Of a DNA stretch of 5,565 nucleotides, positions 1-5,344 are shown one piece after another. Position 1 is the stretch's first letter; every line of letters begins with the position of its first letter. The position numbers were made by a program, and so were the translations under genes. The stretch covers positions 1-5,565 of IMG/VR virus record IMGVR_UViG_2531839474_000014, one strand, 5' to 3'. Below the pieces are notes generated by a model. It was not told the origin of the DNA, did no database searches, and was given only the letters and a program-made list of their open reading frames with translations. This DNA comes from a virus (Duplodnaviria > Heunggongvirae > Uroviricota > Caudoviricetes).

Positions 1-17
1 TATCGCGCCCTCAACAA

Positions 18-165
18 TGAGTTTTGTGATGCGGTGCCTGGTGCCTCCAGGTGACGTTAACCAGTTAACAATTAACGCCGGATACAGAGAATCCACCCAT
101 AACACTGTTTTTGGTTTTAACTGTTCCGCGTGCGCTTAGCCGCATTCACCGCATCACAAAATTCA
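18..165 (-). repeat. Long-range inverted repeat: arm 18-36 (tgagttttgtgatgcggtg) and arm 147-165 (caccgcatcacaaaattca), 18 of 19 complementary, about 110 bp apart; lies between the DicF terminator and the presumed dicB-like start
   Basis: Reverse complement of 18-36 is caccgcatcacaaaactca, differing from 147-165 at one position. Would form a long stem in a minus-strand read-through transcript. Confidence 0.55.
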
Positions 166-169
166 CTTT

Positions 170-227
170 AAAAAGGGCGGCAGAGCAGTCACGGAGTAAA
201 ACTGATACCGCCAAACGTCACCAGAAA
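170..227 (-). ncRNA. dicF: DicF-like small RNA (53-nt mature species about 175-227 plus U-tail to about 170), cell-division inhibitor sRNA of the dicB operon
   Basis: Minus-strand sequence TTTCTGGTGACGTTTGGCGGTATCAGTTTTACTCCGTGACTGCTCTGCCGCCC followed by TTTTT matches the E. coli DicF sequence as I recall it (53 nt). GGCGG...CCGCC stem plus U-run gives an intrinsic-terminator-like 3' end. Position downstream of ydfC-like gene matches the Qin order ydfABC-dicF-dicB. Confidence 0.75.
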
Positions 228-568
228 ATTGATAACAGAGGGCGTTGCAGCGGGGTTGTCACTTAAGCGTATGGTCAACCTGACAACCCGGTGTCCTCAA
301 CGGGGGAAGGAATAACCCCGCCATACTTACCGCCGCGCCATTTCGCGGATTGCCACAACCGGAAGCGCACGGTCGACGAAAATTTAACGACAGGCTATCT
401 ATGAACCAGCTACCTCGCCGTGCGCTTTCGCGTTATGGTCTGACTTTTCAGGGAAATATCCTTTCAGTAAACTGTCAGTGCCGGATGCTCACCCGTGTCC
501 GGCGCACGCACTCCACCTCACCCGTGGAGAACTCCTTAATTACCAACCTTAGCTTCGTTGGTTAGCTA

Positions 569-787
569 TTAACGCGGGTATGTAATCATTCTGGCAATGC
601 TTAATGCCGCTGCTTTTTCCAGATTGGTGATATCCTGCTCCAGAGAGAACAGATTTTCAGCCTGCTTAGCCCTGGCTTCATTAGCCCATTTCAGATCCTG
701 CGCTGCATTAATTTTCTGGTGCATCCACTCATAAAGTTCATCATCGGTATAGTCTGGCGCGATGATAACGGGTTCTCGTTTCTGCAT
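569..787 (-). CDS. ydfC: Small prophage protein, YdfC-like (72 aa), function unknown
   Basis: ORF with ATG at 787-785 preceded by GAGGAA 5 nt upstream (minus strand). 72 aa, same size and operon position as Qin YdfC. Symbol assigned from size, order and linkage to dicF, not from sequence alignment. Confidence 0.65.
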   Translation of the reverse strand: MQKREPVIIAPDYTDDELYEWMHQKINAAQDLKWANEARAKQAENLFSLEQDITNLEKAAALSIARMITYPR

Positions 788-816
788 ACTGATTCCTCGC
801 GGTGCTGTTTCGCTTA

Positions 817-945
817 TCAGCCGTTAGATTTTGCCGAACTGGAAAGCGCCTGTTTAAATTCGCTGAAGCTGAGAGCTTCTTCGCCTTCGGCAAGGCCTTC
901 GAAGTATTCTTCGTAAGCCTTTTCCATGATTGTGTCGAAATCCAT
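817..945 (-). CDS. ydfB: Small acidic protein, YdfB-like (42 aa: MDFDTIMEKAYEEYFEGLAEGEEALSFSEFKQALSSSAKSNG); not in the supplied ORF track
   Basis: Hand translation of the third minus frame. ATG at 945-943 preceded by AGGTGG with 5-nt spacer; stop at 819-817. Starts 1 nt after the ydfA-like stop. 42 aa matches the size of Qin YdfB. Confidence 0.6.
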   Translation of the reverse strand: MDFDTIMEKAYEEYFEGLAEGEEALSFSEFKQALSSSAKSNG

Positions 946-946
946 A

Positions 947-1102
947 TCACCCACCTGAATTTCTTTCCAGCCAGCGACGCGCTCCAGATTCGGTTTTAAA
1001 CGTTTTGCTTTTGGTATACGTCATTGCGGTGAACGTGCCGTCCTGGTTTGGAAACACGCCGTACACCAGAGATTCGTTGTTGCCAAGATCGATAGTATCC
1101 AT
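947..1102 (-). CDS. ydfA: Small prophage protein, YdfA-like (51 aa: MDTIDLGNNESLVYGVFPNQDGTFTAMTYTKSKTFKTESGARRWLERNSGG)
   Basis: Internal ATG (1102-1100) of the 947-1156 minus ORF has a GAGG RBS 6 nt upstream; the longer form has none. 51 aa matches Qin YdfA size; first gene after the repressor-controlled leftward promoter. Confidence 0.65.
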   Translation of the reverse strand: MDTIDLGNNESLVYGVFPNQDGTFTAMTYTKSKTFKTESGARRWLERNSGG

Positions 1103-1179
1103 GCTGACCTCATTTCCCCTTAACGCCGGGGTAGCGGAACTGTTTGCTGAGAACACCGTGCGGTGTCTTGATGGAAAAT

Positions 1180-1208
1180 AATTTAGAATAACCTAACATG
1201 AGAGGCAA
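1180..1208 (-). promoter_or_regulatory. Putative sigma70 promoter of the leftward ydfA-ydfB-ydfC-dicF operon (minus strand -35 TTGCCT at 1208-1203, 17-bp spacer, -10 TAAATT at 1185-1180)
   Basis: Hexamers read on the minus strand, each 4 of 6 to consensus. Flanked and overlapped by operator-like TTAG-N6-CTAA sites. Inferred from sequence only. Confidence 0.4.
1183..1196. promoter_or_regulatory. Operator-like site TTAGaataacCTAA overlapping the -10 of the leftward promoter
   Basis: Shares the TTAG-N6-CTAA core with three other sites around the repressor gene. Confidence 0.45.
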
Positions 1209-1215
1209 GTGTTTT

Positions 1216-1235
1216 TTGTTAGATTGATCTAACAA
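1216..1235. promoter_or_regulatory. Perfect palindrome TTGTTAGAT-tg-ATCTAACAA (9-bp arms), candidate repressor operator upstream of the leftward promoter
   Basis: Perfect dyad symmetry seen directly. Core TTAG-N6-CTAA at 1219-1232. Near-identical half-sites recur at 1728-1745 in the dicA-dicC intergenic region. Confidence 0.6.
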
Positions 1236-1270
1236 AAAGGGTGGGCGCAACTAATCACTTGAAAAGAATG

Positions 1271-1678
1271 TTATTTTATTGATTTATTTTTACGCGCTTT
1301 AAGCATTTCTTCGAAGAGTTTGTTGAAGTTTTCTACTCTTGCGCGCATTTCAGACAGCAAGGCTTCCTGCTCGGAAGATGGAAGAGCATCGAATAATTCG
1401 ATCAATTCTTTGTGGTTGGGAGTTAGCTCTGTTTCCACATGAAGTTCTTGTGCAGGCACTGGTGCCTTGTCTTCGTCACCAAACATTAGCCATGTAGGTG
1501 AGCACTTCAGAGCATCCGCTAAAGCAAACAATCGTTTTCCGACTGGCTGGGTTTCGTCTCTTTCCCATTGTGAAATTGTGACGTGAGCAACTCCAGCGAG
1601 GCGCGCGGCTTCTCGTTGTGTTAAGCGTAATTCTTTTCGTCGCGCCAGAACTCGCTGGCCCAGGGTTCTTGTATCCAT
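1271..1678 (-). CDS. dicA: DicA-like XRE-family HTH repressor (CI analogue), 135 aa
   Basis: N-terminal HTH (LRLTQREAARLAGVAHVTISQWERDETQP) and C-terminal half (CSPTW..FGDEDK ... EMRARVENFNKLFEEMLKARK) closely resemble E. coli DicA as recalled, same 135-aa length. The HTH recognition region differs, suggesting different operator specificity. Divergent from a Cro-like gene. Confidence 0.9.
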   Translation of the reverse strand: MDTRTLGQRVLARRKELRLTQREAARLAGVAHVTISQWERDETQPVGKRLFALADALKCSPTWLMFGDEDKAPVPAQELHVETELTPNHKELIELFDALPSSEQEALLSEMRARVENFNKLFEEMLKARKNKSIK

Positions 1679-1680
1679 AG

Positions 1681-1694
1681 TTAGGTAATTCTAA
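1681..1694. promoter_or_regulatory. Operator-like site TTAGgtaattCTAA next to the repressor start codon; overlaps a -10-like TAGAAT on the minus strand
   Basis: TTAG-N6-CTAA core. Minus-strand TAGAAT (complement of 1688-1693) sits 9 nt upstream of the dicA-like ATG, with no Shine-Dalgarno between. Confidence 0.4.
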
Positions 1695-1700
1695 TTTTTC

Positions 1701-1728
1701 TTGACTTAGGTATCCCGCGCACAATAAT
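1701..1728 (+). promoter_or_regulatory. Putative rightward promoter for the Cro-like gene (-35 TTGACT 1701-1706, 16-bp spacer, -10 AATAAT 1723-1728)
   Basis: -35 is 5 of 6 and -10 is 5 of 6 to consensus. The operator palindrome at 1728-1745 overlaps the -10 and predicted start site. Confidence 0.5.
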
Positions 1729-1745
1729 GTTAGAAAAGTCTAACA
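1728..1745. promoter_or_regulatory. Operator palindrome TGTTAG-aaaagt-CTAACA overlapping the rightward promoter
   Basis: Perfect 6-bp inverted arms with the same TGTTAG/CTAACA half-sites as the 1216-1235 palindrome. Confidence 0.6.
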
Positions 1746-1758
1746 AGAGGGGGATTTG

Positions 1759-1986
1759 ATGCTTAAAGTTGACGCAATTACTTTTTTTGGCAGCAAAACA
1801 AAGCTTGCCAATGCCGCAGGAGTGAGGCTGGCAAGTGTTGCTGCTTGGGGGATACTGGTTCCTGAAGGTCGCGCGATGCGTCTACAGGAGGCATCTGGCG
1901 GGGAGCTTCAGTATGATCCCAAAGTTTATGATGAATATCGTAAGACGAAGCGGGCGGGGCGGTTGAACAATGAAAATCACTCCTGA
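1759..1986 (+). CDS. dicC: Cro-like small DNA-binding protein (DicC analogue), about 75 aa
   Basis: Divergent from the repressor. ATG at 1759 with GAGGGGG RBS 5 nt upstream; the ORF-track start at 1756 is a TTG. Small basic protein in the Cro position. Symbol by position, not by verified alignment. Confidence 0.7.
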   Translation: MLKVDAITFFGSKTKLANAAGVRLASVAAWGILVPEGRAMRLQEASGGELQYDPKVYDEYRKTKRAGRLNNENHS

Positions 1987-2491
1987 ACAGGCTCGTGAGG
2001 CTCTGGATGCCTGGATATGTCGACCAGGAATGACACAGGAGCAGGCGACGATATTAATCACTGAAGCATTCTGGGCTTTGAAAGAGCGCCCGAACATCGA
2101 TGTTCAGCGTGTCACAGATGAAGGTGGCGCGGTTGATCAGCGAGCGCTTGGTGTTAATCGAGTGAAGATATTCGAACGCTGGAAGGCTATCGACACCAGG
2201 GATAAGCGTGAAAAGTTCACGGCGCTAGTGCCTGCGATTATGGAGGCTATCCGGATTAGTGATTTCAGGTTGTATCGTGAAATTACTGACGGAAAAAGCA
2301 TCACGTGCATGATCGCCGGGTTAAACAAAGAATATGGCGATGTGGTGGAGTCCGGACTGCTTTTTGCTGATCCTGCCGTAGTGGATCGTGAAACTGACGA
2401 ACTTATAGAAAAAGCAATTGCTTTCAAGCTTGCGTATCGACAGCAATACCAACAAAAAGCTGGATGGAATTATGAGCCTTCTTTTTGCTGA
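1970..2491 (+). CDS. YdaT-like protein (CII-analogue family), 173 aa
   Basis: Overlaps the Cro-like stop by 17 nt, suggesting translational coupling. The segment WKAIDTRDKREKFTALVPAIMEAIRISDFRLY resembles Rac YdaT (WLKGETKTQREKIQKLIPAILAILPRELRHRL) as recalled. Sits where CII would in a lambdoid layout. Confidence 0.6.
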   Translation: MKITPEQAREALDAWICRPGMTQEQATILITEAFWALKERPNIDVQRVTDEGGAVDQRALGVNRVKIFERWKAIDTRDKREKFTALVPAIMEAIRISDFRLYREITDGKSITCMIAGLNKEYGDVVESGLLFADPAVVDRETDELIEKAIAFKLAYRQQYQQKAGWNYEPSFC

Positions 2492-3437
2492 ACGCCCACT
2501 GGTTATAAACACGCAGCTGGCAATGAAAATTGGCTTAAACGAAGCCATTGTTTTGCAACAACTGCACTACTGGTTGAGAGATACCAACTCCGGCATGGAA
2601 TGTGATGGTGTTCGCTGGATTTATAACACAACGGAACAATGGCTGGAACAGTTCCCATTCTGGTCAGAGTCAACGTTAAAGCGCGCGTTTGCAAGTCTGA
2701 AAACGCTGGGGCTTTTGCGTTGTGAAAAGCTCAATAAATCAAAGCGCGATATGACCAATTTCTACACGATCAACTATGGGAGCGAGCTTTTAGATGGTGG
2801 CAAATTGAGCGAATCCATCGGTTCAAAATGCGCCGCTCCATCAGGTCAAAATGACACGATGGAAGAGGTCAAAATGAAACGCTCCATTGGTTCAAAACGA
2901 CTCAATGTCATCGGGTCAAAATGGCCTGATGATCTTACAGAGAATACAACAGAGATTACTACAGAGAATAAAAAGACTTCTCGTCCGGAAGCTTCGCAAC
3001 CGGACCCGCAGACGGTTGAACAGGATTTTTTAACCCGACACCCTGACGCGGTTGTGTTCAGTGCGAAAAAACGCCAGTGGGGCAGCCAGGAAGATTTGGC
3101 GTGTGCGCAGTGGATCTGGGGGCGAATCGTGAGTCTTTACGAGCAGGCCGCCAGCGATGATGGCGAGATTTCGCGACCGAAAGAACCCAACTGGACCGCA
3201 TGGGCCAACGACGTGCGCACAATGCGGATGCTGGATGGCAGAACTCACAGACAAATTTGTGAAATGTTTGGTCGGGTGCAGCGGGATCCATTCTGGGTAA
3301 AAAATATCATGAGTCCGTCAAAGCTTCGCGAAAAATGGGATGAACTGGTTATCCGCCTGGGGCGTTCGTCTGTACAGCGTTGTGTGAATCATATTTCTGA
3401 GCCGGATACCGAAATTCCGCCGGGCTTCAGGGGGTAA
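2472..3437 (+). CDS. Phage replication initiation protein (lambda-O-like organisation) with internal origin and DnaT-like C-terminal tail, 321 aa from the first ATG (alternative TTG start at 2418)
   Basis: Iterons and an AT-rich repeat block lie inside the coding sequence, as in lambda O. C-terminus VNHISEPDTEIPPGFRG matches the C-terminus of E. coli primosomal protein DnaT (...VNTVSEPDSQIPPGFRG) as recalled. Confidence 0.8.
   Translation: MSLLFAERPLVINTQLAMKIGLNEAIVLQQLHYWLRDTNSGMECDGVRWIYNTTEQWLEQFPFWSESTLKRAFASLKTLGLLRCEKLNKSKRDMTNFYTINYGSELLDGGKLSESIGSKCAAPSGQNDTMEEVKMKRSIGSKRLNVIGSKWPDDLTENTTEITTENKKTSRPEASQPDPQTVEQDFLTRHPDAVVFSAKKRQWGSQEDLACAQWIWGRIVSLYEQAASDDGEISRPKEPNWTAWANDVRTMRMLDGRTHRQICEMFGRVQRDPFWVKNIMSPSKLREKWDELVIRLGRSSVQRCVNHISEPDTEIPPGFRG
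2814..2923. repeat. Five direct iterons with core GGT(T/C)CAAAA(T/C)G, ending at 2830, 2853, 2876, 2899 and 2923 (23-24 bp phasing); putative phage origin inside the initiator gene
   Basis: tCCATCGGTTCAAAATG, tCCATCAGGTCAAAATG, gaAGAGGTCAAAATG, tCCATTGGTTCAAAACG, gtCATCGGGTCAAAATG. They encode repeated SIGSK-type peptides in the protein. Confidence 0.75.
2937..2970. repeat. Three 12-bp-phased A+T-rich repeats ACAGAGA(A/T)TA just right of the iterons; candidate DNA-unwinding element
   Basis: ACAGAGAATA at 2937, ACAGAGATTA at 2949, ACAGAGAATA at 2961. Position relative to the iterons mirrors the lambda origin. Confidence 0.55.
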
Positions 3438-3477
3438 GTGTTAATTTCTGGTCATGAGGTAATTTTCAGGAGGGCTT

Positions 3478-3900
3478 GTGGCAAAAGTTTTTACACAAGA
3501 AGAGCGGGAAAAAATTAAAGGGCAGGTTGTTGAACTCGTACGCCGGAGTGGGCGTGAGACGTTACGGCAACTGGAAGTCAAGACAGGTGCGACAAGATAT
3601 CTGATGAGCGTTCTCGCAAGAGAGCTGGTTGCCAGCGGCGATGTATACAACTCTGGTTACGGGTTATTCCCGTCTGAACAGGCGCGTAAGGACTGGCAAA
3701 ATGCCCGTAAAAAGCTCTCAAGGGCAAAGCTGAAGGAACCATCTGCGGTTGATCCGGACCTTATCTGGTCATTACCTGACGGAGAAATACGTCGCTACGA
3801 CAGGCGTCAGAACATAATCTGTCGCGAGTGCCGGAAGAGTGAAGTTATGCAGCGCATACTAGCATTCTATCAGGGAAATGCTCGATATTTATTGAAGTGA
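3478..3900 (+). CDS. Hypothetical prophage protein, 140 aa, GTG start; possible winged-helix-like N-terminus
   Basis: AGGAGG RBS at 3468-3473 upstream of GTG 3478. Composition matches the neighbouring phage genes. Ends with tandem stops TGA TGA. No family recognised. Confidence 0.65.
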   Translation: MAKVFTQEEREKIKGQVVELVRRSGRETLRQLEVKTGATRYLMSVLARELVASGDVYNSGYGLFPSEQARKDWQNARKKLSRAKLKEPSAVDPDLIWSLPDGEIRRYDRRQNIICRECRKSEVMQRILAFYQGNARYLLK

Positions 3901-4082
3901 TGAGATTAAAGTTTATTAGTTCAGATATTGATTGGCTCTTTTGTGGAGTAGGGTAGAGTTAGTGTGTTTGTCTGCTTGGTGCCAGCAGCGGATATGTTTA
4001 ACAACAGAAAGCATTCAGCATGGTTAGTGGATTTGCAAAGTGGATTAGGATTTGAGAAACTTTGATGAAGTTGTAAAGCTTG

Positions 4083-4117
4083 TTTCTATAAAAATAGAAA
4101 TTTAACTAATAGTTAAA
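4083..4117. promoter_or_regulatory. Two adjacent A+T-rich palindromes (TTTCTAT-aaaa-ATAGAAA at 4083-4100; TTTAACT-aat-AGTTAAA at 4101-4117) about 35-70 bp upstream of the orphan ORF; candidate operator or promoter region
   Basis: Perfect 7-bp inverted arms seen directly. Followed by AAGGA RBS (4139-4143) and ATG at 4153. Confidence 0.35.
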
Positions 4118-4152
4118 CACACCTCCAGCTTCATTGAAAAGGATTATTAGCT

Positions 4153-5052
4153 ATGATTGATCCACTTATTAGAAACTTACAGAGTGATATTGCACTACTC
4201 CAGCTTTATATCGCGCAACGCAAACAGGCAGGCTTTCATGACATGGAAAGAATAATTGAGTCATTGACCATCTTTATGTTTCGCGCGCTGAAAATGGGTG
4301 AACTGGTAAACATGAATCAGATTAAAGTTAATTTTCCCGCCATTGATTTAGCTGATAATAAAAACATGATAGCAGTTCAAGTTACTACGAATGCAAGTCC
4401 AGCAAAAATTAAAAAAACTATCGAATCTTTTGAGAAAATAAATGAAATAGGAGAGAGTCTGAAAGATAAATACTCTACTTTATATATTTTTGGTTTTTGT
4501 AAAGCCTCAAGATACCTAACTCCAAGTTATTGTAAAATAATCGACCCCAGCTATTTCGTGAATGAACTTTGCGATAAAGCAGATGAAGATATGGTCCAGG
4601 ATATGATTGACGCCATTCGACGCCATCATGATTATACATCATTACATCCATGGAGTGATAAAGATTCACTCGAAATTATACTCAATATTATTAATCGCAA
4701 TGCAATAAAACATCGGATGAGTTGCGAAGGCAGTCTGTCTGATATGCTCACTGGTTTAAAAGAAATTAATGAAGTAATTACAAAAGGAACAATTCAACGT
4801 AAGCAACGTTCAAAATCGATATCTGACTTCAAAGATCAAAGCATGGTGAAATTTATGAGAGGTGTAATGGATGATTTGTCTGTTATTCAAGCCATAGTGA
4901 ACAAATCTAAAGTTAACCAAGGTGATATGGTTTATATAAGCCATGAAGATATGATTAATATTGATAAATTAAAAGCTAAAATAGCAAGTGATTCATCAGA
5001 GATTGCAAGGCTAAATAATATTGATATAACACTAAATGTTGTTGATTTATAA
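4153..5052 (+). CDS. Orphan low-GC protein, 299 aa, function unknown; candidate accessory (defence or abortive-infection type) gene
   Basis: Long uninterrupted ORF with AAGGA RBS 9 nt upstream. G+C roughly 30-35 percent by eye against about 50 percent in flanking genes. No catalytic motif recognised. N-terminal segment NFPAIDLADNKNMIAVQVTTNASPAKIKK loosely recalls N-terminal domains of conflict-system proteins (unverified). Confidence 0.8.
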   Translation: MIDPLIRNLQSDIALLQLYIAQRKQAGFHDMERIIESLTIFMFRALKMGELVNMNQIKVNFPAIDLADNKNMIAVQVTTNASPAKIKKTIESFEKINEIGESLKDKYSTLYIFGFCKASRYLTPSYCKIIDPSYFVNELCDKADEDMVQDMIDAIRRHHDYTSLHPWSDKDSLEIILNIINRNAIKHRMSCEGSLSDMLTGLKEINEVITKGTIQRKQRSKSISDFKDQSMVKFMRGVMDDLSVIQAIVNKSKVNQGDMVYISHEDMINIDKLKAKIASDSSEIARLNNIDITLNVVDL

Positions 5053-5344
5053 TTGTCGATTTAGCAAAACAGAGAATGCTTTGAAAGTTTCACCGAGAAA
5101 TATTTATTGTGAACCTCCTTATTGTTTATCGACTTTTACTCTCAGCTCATTGCAGTACTGTCGGAGAAGGCTACTATGTACAAGAAGCAGCTAACATAAG
5201 CGAGCATCACTATTGATATTAGGAAGAGTATATAAAAACTTCATGCTGAACCTTACAAAAGTAGGTAAACCGGCAATGGCCTAAGTGGCAGGGTCATGTT
5301 GATCCGGCACTGCCGAGCTAATAATTAACAAGCAAATCACTCTT

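Follow-up and report, generated by a model that had tools for sequence, protein, structure and literature searches.

An intact allele of the SMEK-domain anti-phage system DS-27 as cargo of a Qin/DicB-type lambdoid prophage

INTRODUCTION

SMEK domains are known as Mrr-like nuclease effectors of bacterial anti-phage defence. In the short prokaryotic Argonaute (pAgo) systems of clade S2B, the SMEK domain is fused to APAZ, and DNA cleavage in vitro has been described for the complex from Kordia (PMC10810196, PMC12205087). In short Lamassu, SMEK is the effector domain of LmuA (PMC12663957). In both short pAgo and short Lamassu, activation of the SMEK nuclease depends on a separate sensor. Another SMEK protein, DS-27 of Escherichia coli, was reported in the DefensePredictor study (DeWeirdt, Mahoney and Laub, Science 2026, PMC13092281; preprint 10.1101/2025.01.08.631726). 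Here we describe a DNA stretch of 5,565 nucleotides from a virus of the Caudoviricetes (positions 1 to 5,565 of IMG/VR record IMGVR_UViG_2531839474_000014), hereafter the window, in which an open reading frame (ORF) at 4153-5052 is very probably an intact DS-27 allele with a role in anti-phage defence.

DS-27, also listed as "SMEK", is a protein of 299 amino acids (WP_087896215.1) from E. coli GCF_003334605.1 (PMC13092281). In the supplement of that study it is recorded as a single-gene transcription unit, as defensive (TRUE), as a "Predicted novel defense gene" and as replicated (TRUE); in the main text it is nowhere discussed individually. For the assays, MG1655 carried the gene together with its native upstream region on a low-copy plasmid, and 24 phages were used for challenge. 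RB69 was the only positive, its titer falling from 7e6 to 1e4 plaque-forming units (PFU), a -log10 efficiency of plating (EOP) of 2.85 or ~700-fold (PMC13092281, Table S7). HHpred analysis by the same authors placed SMEK_N at residues 8-139 (0.998) and DUF6650 at residues 169-292 (0.88), and DUF6650 was one of five DUFs that they newly tied to defence (PMC13092281). DUF6650 is also the domain of ThsG, the type VI Thoeris effector, which is switched by 2' cyclic ADP-ribose (2'cADPR) and has been modelled as a hexamer (bioRxiv 10.64898/2025.12.03.692087).

RESULTS AND DISCUSSION

The window carries a complete DS-27 gene

The DS-27 locus of the window consists of the following features.

3901-4152, plus strand: low-GC region upstream of DS-27, GC content 0.34, including the 200 bp (3953-4152) that correspond to the native promoter region of the published clone
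4153-5052, plus strand: DS-27 allele, "SMEK domain-containing protein", 299 amino acids, intact, ATG start, assigned by ORF, identity to WP_087896215.1 and RefSeq annotation
5053-5354, no strand: low-GC stretch 3' of DS-27, ending at the junction with an insertion sequence (IS), colinear with E. coli C7 to 5354

The window protein was aligned with WP_087896215.1 in the sequence given in Table S8 of PMC13092281. The two proteins are of equal length, and 296 of 299 residues are identical in a gapless alignment. The differences between the window allele and the tested DS-27 are K95E, I96T and M189V, and the window residue at position 189 is the Met of the family consensus. The published cloning primers (PMC13092281, Table S11) were also located in the window; the forward primer corresponds to 3953-3975 with 0 mismatches and the reverse primer to 5131-5152 with 1 mismatch. 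Because these primers bound 3953-5152 and the downstream IS1414 starts only at 5355, the functional fragment is there in full and has not been disrupted by the IS. The window and the published system thus share the SMEK_N plus C-terminal domain architecture and the flanking DNA, and the window differs by the IS1414 downstream.

Both SMEK_N models were matched well above their curated cut-offs, Pfam PF21941 with 79.9 bits (cut-off 27) and NCBIfam NF033859 with 105.1 bits (cut-off 30). In a Pfam search at E<=1, nothing besides SMEK_N was found, with no match to Mrr_cat or Mrr_N. The RefSeq counterpart in E. coli C7 is WP_000566848.1, with a DNA identity of 99.9%. An original prediction made from the letters of the window alone had presented the gene as an undescribed orphan and a candidate for defence, abortive infection or anti-defence. 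The gene is neither an orphan nor undescribed, being a member of a curated family, annotated in RefSeq, with 108 homologue clusters (see below) and a published phenotype. The guess at a defence gene proved right, since a 99%-identical allele protects E. coli MG1655 from RB69 (PMC13092281, Tables S6 and S7), and the same phenotype contradicts the anti-defence alternative. Low GC content, hotspot position and a nuclease-like N-terminus had therefore pointed to a true defence gene. DS-27 itself is already known and the gene is no new find, and the biological news value of the locus is small because the system has been published.

Composition and expression signals were examined across 3901-5354. 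The GC content was 0.48-0.52 in 3300-3900 and 0.30-0.36 in 3900-5250, and it went up again across 5250-5550, confirming the sharp drop after 3900 noted in the prediction. The 299-codon ORF at 4153-5052 is the sole long ORF of the low-GC block in the window, and it has, as predicted, its own ribosome-binding site (AAGGA at 4139-4143, 9 nt 5' of the ATG, as read from the sequence). The predicted upstream palindromes are also present, one as TTTCTAT/ATAGAAA at 4083-4089/4094-4100 and an adjoining one as TTTAACTA/TAGTTAAA at 4101-4108/4110-4117. Both are AT-rich, and they carry little weight because such short palindromes are common in DNA of 33% GC. When 3901-4152 was scanned with the sigma-70 consensus, nothing promoter-like was found, and the count over the whole region equalled the shuffle expectation, which does not support the "autonomous expression signals" proposed for the gene. 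A promoter in 3953-4152 is nevertheless implied, because the published clone, which begins at the equivalent of 3953, works. No terminator-like site was found in 5053-5354 by consensus scan, and no Rfam match was found there.

Domain architecture and candidate active site

The protein consists of two domains, encoded as follows.

4153-4578, plus strand: N-terminal SMEK_N domain, residues 1-142, Mrr-like PD-(D/E)xK restriction-endonuclease fold, with conserved E36, D65, Q76-x-T78 and K85
4579-5049, plus strand: C-terminal all-helical domain, residues ~143-299, with conserved D169, R182, A184, E192, G212 and K221

An AlphaFold2 model with a predicted local distance difference test score (pLDDT) of 83 shows an alpha/beta N-terminal domain and a helical C-terminal domain, the latter with helices at 145-163, 169-180, 195-210, 229-251 and 264-287. 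In the N-terminal domain, the alpha/beta core of the restriction-endonuclease fold is present, and the fold resembles AspBHI and MspJI. The N-terminal block that had been singled out as nuclease-like, NFPAIDLAD...VQVTT...K, is the core of this domain. E36, D65, Q76 and K85 were invariant in 56/56 family members, down to ~20% identity, and T78 was conserved in 53/56. E36 lies on helix 2, Q76-V-T78 forms the second motif and K85 lies on the next helix. Because of this conservation across the 56 members, the site is read as E...D...QxT...K and not as the textbook D...(D/E)xK. The same E, D, QxT and K residues occur in Kordia Mrr-APAZ, whose solved Mrr domain (PDB 26bh) gave a sequence match with an E value of 4.8e-12. 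The columns "EXK position 73-75" and "D position 60" of Table S8 (PMC13092281) were not used here; they are not protein coordinates, as a 332-residue protein has 412-414.

A profile of the C-terminal domain was searched against 1.84 billion representatives and gave 93 matches only. These lie at residues ~135-300 of full-length proteins (~290-320 amino acids), the remainder being fragments, and SMEK_N was present in all 56 full-length matches tested. The two-domain architecture is therefore fixed, and the C-terminal helical domain is confined to the DS-27/SMEK family. By hmmscan, the C-terminal domain matched no Pfam family, HEPN included. A HEPN RNase with R182-x4-H187 as its motif was considered and rejected, because position 187 is His in only 35/56 members and Asp in 18/56, although R182 is conserved in 54/56. 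Hmmscan likewise gave no match to DUF6650 (PF20355), and hhalign against three presumptive ThsG proteins, which were unverified and gave a thin profile, returned a probability of 1.4%. The link to DUF6650 and ThsG was thus not reproduced by either method.

Comparison with described systems

With the SMEK-APAZ protein of the Kordia jejudonensis KjAgo system (clade S2B; PDB 26bh), DS-27 shares a homologous N-terminal nuclease domain with the E...D...QxT...K residues, and both are defensive. By contrast, DS-27 has no APAZ and no adjacent Argonaute gene; its second domain is a C-terminal helical domain of its own and it works without partners, and its target recognition therefore cannot be guide-based. 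The PADLOC model Aga_REase-PNTD1-PNTD2 (463 positions) aligned only at its positions 9-143, corresponding to residues 8-146 of DS-27. The PADLOC 2023 models hold nothing for DS-27 beyond this domain, which the model name describes as an Argonaute-associated REase domain. No PIWI gene was present in the annotated homologue loci, and the E. coli neighbours are DUF977, a methyltransferase and IS1414.

The SMEK-type LmuA of short Lamassu (PMC12663957) has an effector domain of the same family, likewise at the N-terminus of a defence protein. DS-27 in E. coli differs in being without LmuB (SMC-like) or LmuC, which are also absent from most homologue loci. A Lamassu operon does lie beside a SMEK homologue in Citrobacter koseri, and it has CTD7, MC3 and LmuB_C genes of its own. 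On architecture and neighbourhood, membership of DS-27 in the APAZ, Argonaute and Lamassu systems was rejected. Compared with ThsG, DS-27 has DUF6650 assigned to residues 169-292 by the HHpred analysis cited above, and it is without a TIR partner.

The DS-27 island and IS1414 in a variable prophage slot

The surroundings of DS-27 were compared with those in other E. coli genomes, and the following neighbouring features were assigned.

3478-3900, plus strand: DUF977/Ren-like gene, 140 amino acids, Pfam DUF977 at 2e-30; conserved left flank of the hotspot, outside the island
5355-5565, minus strand: end of IS1414 (IS256 family), with the C-terminus of the transposase from 5389, running off the window edge; 100% identity to annotated copies
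13467-14828 of the uninterrupted locus L001, minus strand: methyltransferase and 231-residue hypothetical genes, convergent with DS-27

E. coli C7 has a Qin/DicB-type prophage that is colinear with the window at 99.4%; its genes run in the order dicB, ydfABC, dicA and dicC, then a YdaT-like gene and an O-like replication gene, followed by DUF977, the island, hokD, DUF968, rusA and Q. In C7, the low-GC block is uninterrupted and ~3.2 kb long and carries three genes, namely SMEK (plus strand), a class I S-adenosylmethionine (SAM) methyltransferase (minus strand) and a hypothetical protein of 231 amino acids (minus strand) with several hydrophobic stretches. Among 5,426 complete E. coli genomes, 4,067 have the DUF977 gene, compared with 151 for the DS-27 island. 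In the slot after DUF977, W224N carries two hypothetical genes, ET120 carries other genes and EC958 carries small ORFs. The first protein of the W224N cargo is WP_014639476.1, the first protein of DS-33 (PMC13092281), and a second validated system therefore sits in the same hotspot. In other strains, the cargo of the slot is DS-33 or a Dcm/NgoMIV-type restriction-modification system. These results show that Qin/DicB-type lambdoid prophages have a variable slot, bounded by the DUF977/Ren-like gene and hokD, in which DS-27 is accessory cargo, and the variable hotspot position inferred in the original prediction was borne out. The locus thus documents a defence hotspot of these prophages that holds DS-27, DS-33 or restriction-modification genes by strain.

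Many genomes contain ends labelled "IS256-like element IS1414 family transposase" to which 5355-5565 shows 100% identity. The predicted IS256-family element at the end of the island is therefore real, with the junction at 5354/5355 rather than at 5340. Homology to the uninterrupted island ends at 5354, 13 bp short of the methyltransferase stop codon in L001, which places IS1414 between DS-27 and the convergent methyltransferase gene, 302 bp past the DS-27 stop. The window shows a single island gene because IS1414 inserted after DS-27; the "single-gene island" of the prediction is an effect of the insertion on a block of three genes. The junction of DS-27 and IS1414 (5354/5355) was found in 0 of the 5,426 complete E. 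coli genomes, and the insertion is probably a recent, strain-specific event.

The segment with the methyltransferase and hypothetical genes is full length in 151 E. coli genomes, in 146 of them at >=99% identity, a tally equal to that of the SMEK segment. The methyltransferase matched generic small-molecule and RNA families and no DNA methyltransferase family, with a weak match to PADLOC mad2 of the MADS system (9.5e-5). The two genes form a separate transcription unit from DS-27 because they lie on the opposite strand, and the pair may be a separate cargo system. The protein of the DUF977 gene to the left of the hotspot matches PHROG 142, "Ren-like exclusion protein", at 3.4e-46, and this gene may have an exclusion function of its own.

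Distribution of the family and its neighbourhoods

The 1,440-bp region was full length in 151 of the 5,426 complete E. coli genomes, where the gene is annotated as "SMEK domain-containing protein", and the SMEK segment reached >=99% identity in 146 of these. A protein search gave 108 clusters of full-length homologues of ~300 amino acids, from Enterobacterales, Pseudomonas, Vibrio, Xanthomonas and Burkholderiales, and a genome scan also placed homologues in Bacteroidota at ~31% identity. The family of ~300-residue homologues therefore spans Proteobacteria and Bacteroidota. When 50,697 phage records were searched by tblastn, the sole match was a SMEK_N-like fragment of 30% coverage in one Klebsiella phage. 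The DS-27 gene is thus not a regular component of sequenced phages.

The fragment belongs to Klebsiella phage ST15-OXA48phi14.1 (MK433578.1 / NC_049454.1) and lies at 5-271, right where the record begins, with 35% identity over residues 5-93 and the annotation "regulator of acetyl CoA synthetase". A SMEK protein with 87% identity is encoded on NZ_JBFBIU010000052.1, a 3,048-bp contig labelled Streptomyces sp. NPDC088196, which probably represents enterobacterial contamination of a Streptomyces assembly. Two more "SMEK domain-containing proteins" of E. coli, WP_001082070.1 (326 amino acids) and WP_000633074.1 (368 amino acids), are listed in Tables S5 and S10 of PMC13092281. Their DefensePredictor log-odds are 12.7-14.2, compared with 7.0 for DS-27, and neither has a DS name in the tables of that paper that were examined.

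We also examined the neighbourhoods of SMEK homologues at 21 loci of other genera. By tblastn, neither the methyltransferase nor the 231-residue gene was found beside a homologue, and all-against-all clustering of 239 neighbouring ORFs gave no recurrent neighbour. The lack of a conserved neighbour in the 21 loci is consistent with DS-27 being a self-contained system. The Enterobacter homologue belongs to an island that is bounded by an integrase and also encodes an AAA_13 ATPase and HNH_2, and the Pseudomonas homologue lies near an integrase-like gene (weak Integrase_1 match), a HigBA-like pair and SLATT_5. In genomes of the Vibrio cyclitrophicus type (8001-9755 of loci L032-L034), the SMEK homologue is paired with Abi_alpha, and these two genes make up an insert that separates matE from the gcvP operon. 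The Citrobacter koseri homologue lies between the Lamassu operon and AAA_15/21 genes, and that of Cupriavidus adjoins Hachiman and SymE. SMEK homologues elsewhere thus sit in defence or mobile contexts.

Proposed mechanism and rival explanations

The locus is best explained, with good confidence, as a DS-27 allele that serves as prophage defence cargo and would act as a sensor-gated nuclease; the gating mechanism taken on its own is, in our view, evenly balanced between right and wrong. In this model, the Mrr-like N-terminal SMEK domain would be the effector nuclease, by analogy with SMEK-APAZ of short Argonaute systems and SMEK-LmuA of short Lamassu. The N-terminal domain is taken as the effector because of this analogy and because of its invariant active-site-like residues. 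The family-specific C-terminal helical domain is presumed, likewise by analogy, to be a sensor, regulatory or oligomerisation module; it would hold the nuclease off until an infection cue appears, probably by controlling self-association. Upon the cue, DNA would be cut and phage production halted.

Several points weigh against this explanation. Q76-x-T78 replaces (D/E)xK, the sole invariant Lys lies seven residues further on, and activity of such a variant site is backed solely by the weak cleavage reported for the Kordia complex. The published phenotype belongs to another allele, three residues apart (K95E, I96T and M189V). Protection extends to one phage only, RB69, which plated poorly on the control strain (PMC13092281, Table S7), and the entries of Table S11 include no SMEK mutants, either of the catalytic site or of the C-terminal domain (PMC13092281). 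Finally, the role proposed for the C-terminal domain comes from analogy.

The published specificity could also be read through DNA chemistry. Protection was seen for RB69 and not for T4 (PMC13092281, Table S7), and RB69 DNA contains arabinosyl-hydroxymethylcytosine (arabinosyl-hmC) in place of glucosyl-hmC (PMC6024577). DS-27 could then be a type IV-like modification-dependent enzyme, the C-terminal domain of which reads arabinosyl-hmC while the Mrr-like domain cuts the incoming genome, without an abortive component. Among nucleases, AspBHI has been named as the nearest homologue of the SMEK/Mrr-like domain (preprint 10.1101/2023.06.08.544223), and DS-27 acts alone, the published clone needing no methyltransferase. 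However, the C-terminal domain has no detectable similarity to known readers of modified bases, among them SRA, winged-helix Mrr_N and YTH-like domains. The nuclease of DS-27 is N-terminal, an order opposite to that of Mrr, MspJI and AspBHI, and in place of Mrr_cat with an N-terminal Mrr_N/winged-helix domain the partner is an all-helical bundle. Wherever else SMEK is known, it serves as a collateral effector that has to be activated, and not as a reader of sequence or modification. RB69 and T4 also differ in many proteins besides DNA chemistry, and they are the only two T-even phages recognisable in the Table S7 panel. We therefore consider a type IV-like enzyme unlikely. A different reading of the C-terminal domain starts from the DUF6650 assignment; because DUF6650 is the domain of ThsG, which responds to 2'cADPR, a ligand-gated switch is suggested. 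The C-terminal domain would be a distant ThsG/DUF6650 relative acting as a small-molecule-gated oligomerisation switch, and DS-27 a stand-alone "receiver" nuclease without its own signal synthase, fired by a nucleotide-like metabolite made in RB69 infection or by another resident system. This is a highly speculative proposal to which we give little credence, and the assignment behind it was not recovered in our own searches.

The equal genome tallies of the SMEK and methyltransferase/hypothetical segments, their position in one common low-GC block as convergent neighbours and the weak mad2 match would fit a larger functional unit in E. coli. In that case the whole three-gene island (SMEK nuclease, class I SAM methyltransferase and 231-residue membrane protein) would be a restriction-modification-like or methylation-associated system, which IS1414 has uncoupled here. 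This is very unlikely; a DS-27 fragment ending 100 bp past the stop codon sufficed for defence, with no toxicity reported, the methyltransferase belongs to generic families rather than DNA methyltransferase families, and the partner genes are absent beside the homologues of the 21 loci. The linkage is one of E. coli only, and both a three-gene operon as the general unit and a restriction-modification system with the neighbouring methyltransferase were rejected on the neighbourhood results given above. Also very unlikely, and the least likely of the rivals, is a SMEK domain that is catalytically dead for want of the (D/E)xK lysine, in a protein that protects through DNA binding or by occupying a factor of the host or the phage, as a regulator might. 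Q76-x-T78 does stand in place of the canonical (D/E)xK, and some (older) database records call homologues "regulator", a name for which no experimental basis was found. Yet E36, D65, Q76 and K85 are invariant down to ~20% identity, as active-site residues are expected to be, and active MspJI-type enzymes with a Q-for-E replacement are known. Moreover, Kordia Mrr-APAZ has the same residues and its complex reportedly cleaves DNA.

Other features of the window

Outside the DS-27 locus, the antisense small RNA DicF was identified at 175-226 on the minus strand (Rfam RF00039, 76.7 bits, gathering cut-off 48), together with a sub-threshold STnc100-like match at 23-163 on the same strand. In the immunity region, blastn found nothing in the E. 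coli C7 prophage that matches 1352-1847, whereas the flanks matched at 94% (1-1351) and 99.4% (1848-5354). The block comprises the 5' portion of the gene for the DicA-like repressor (1271-1678) together with the intergenic DNA as far as the point where the Cro-like gene starts, and this pattern of sequence identity indicates a mosaic immunity swap.

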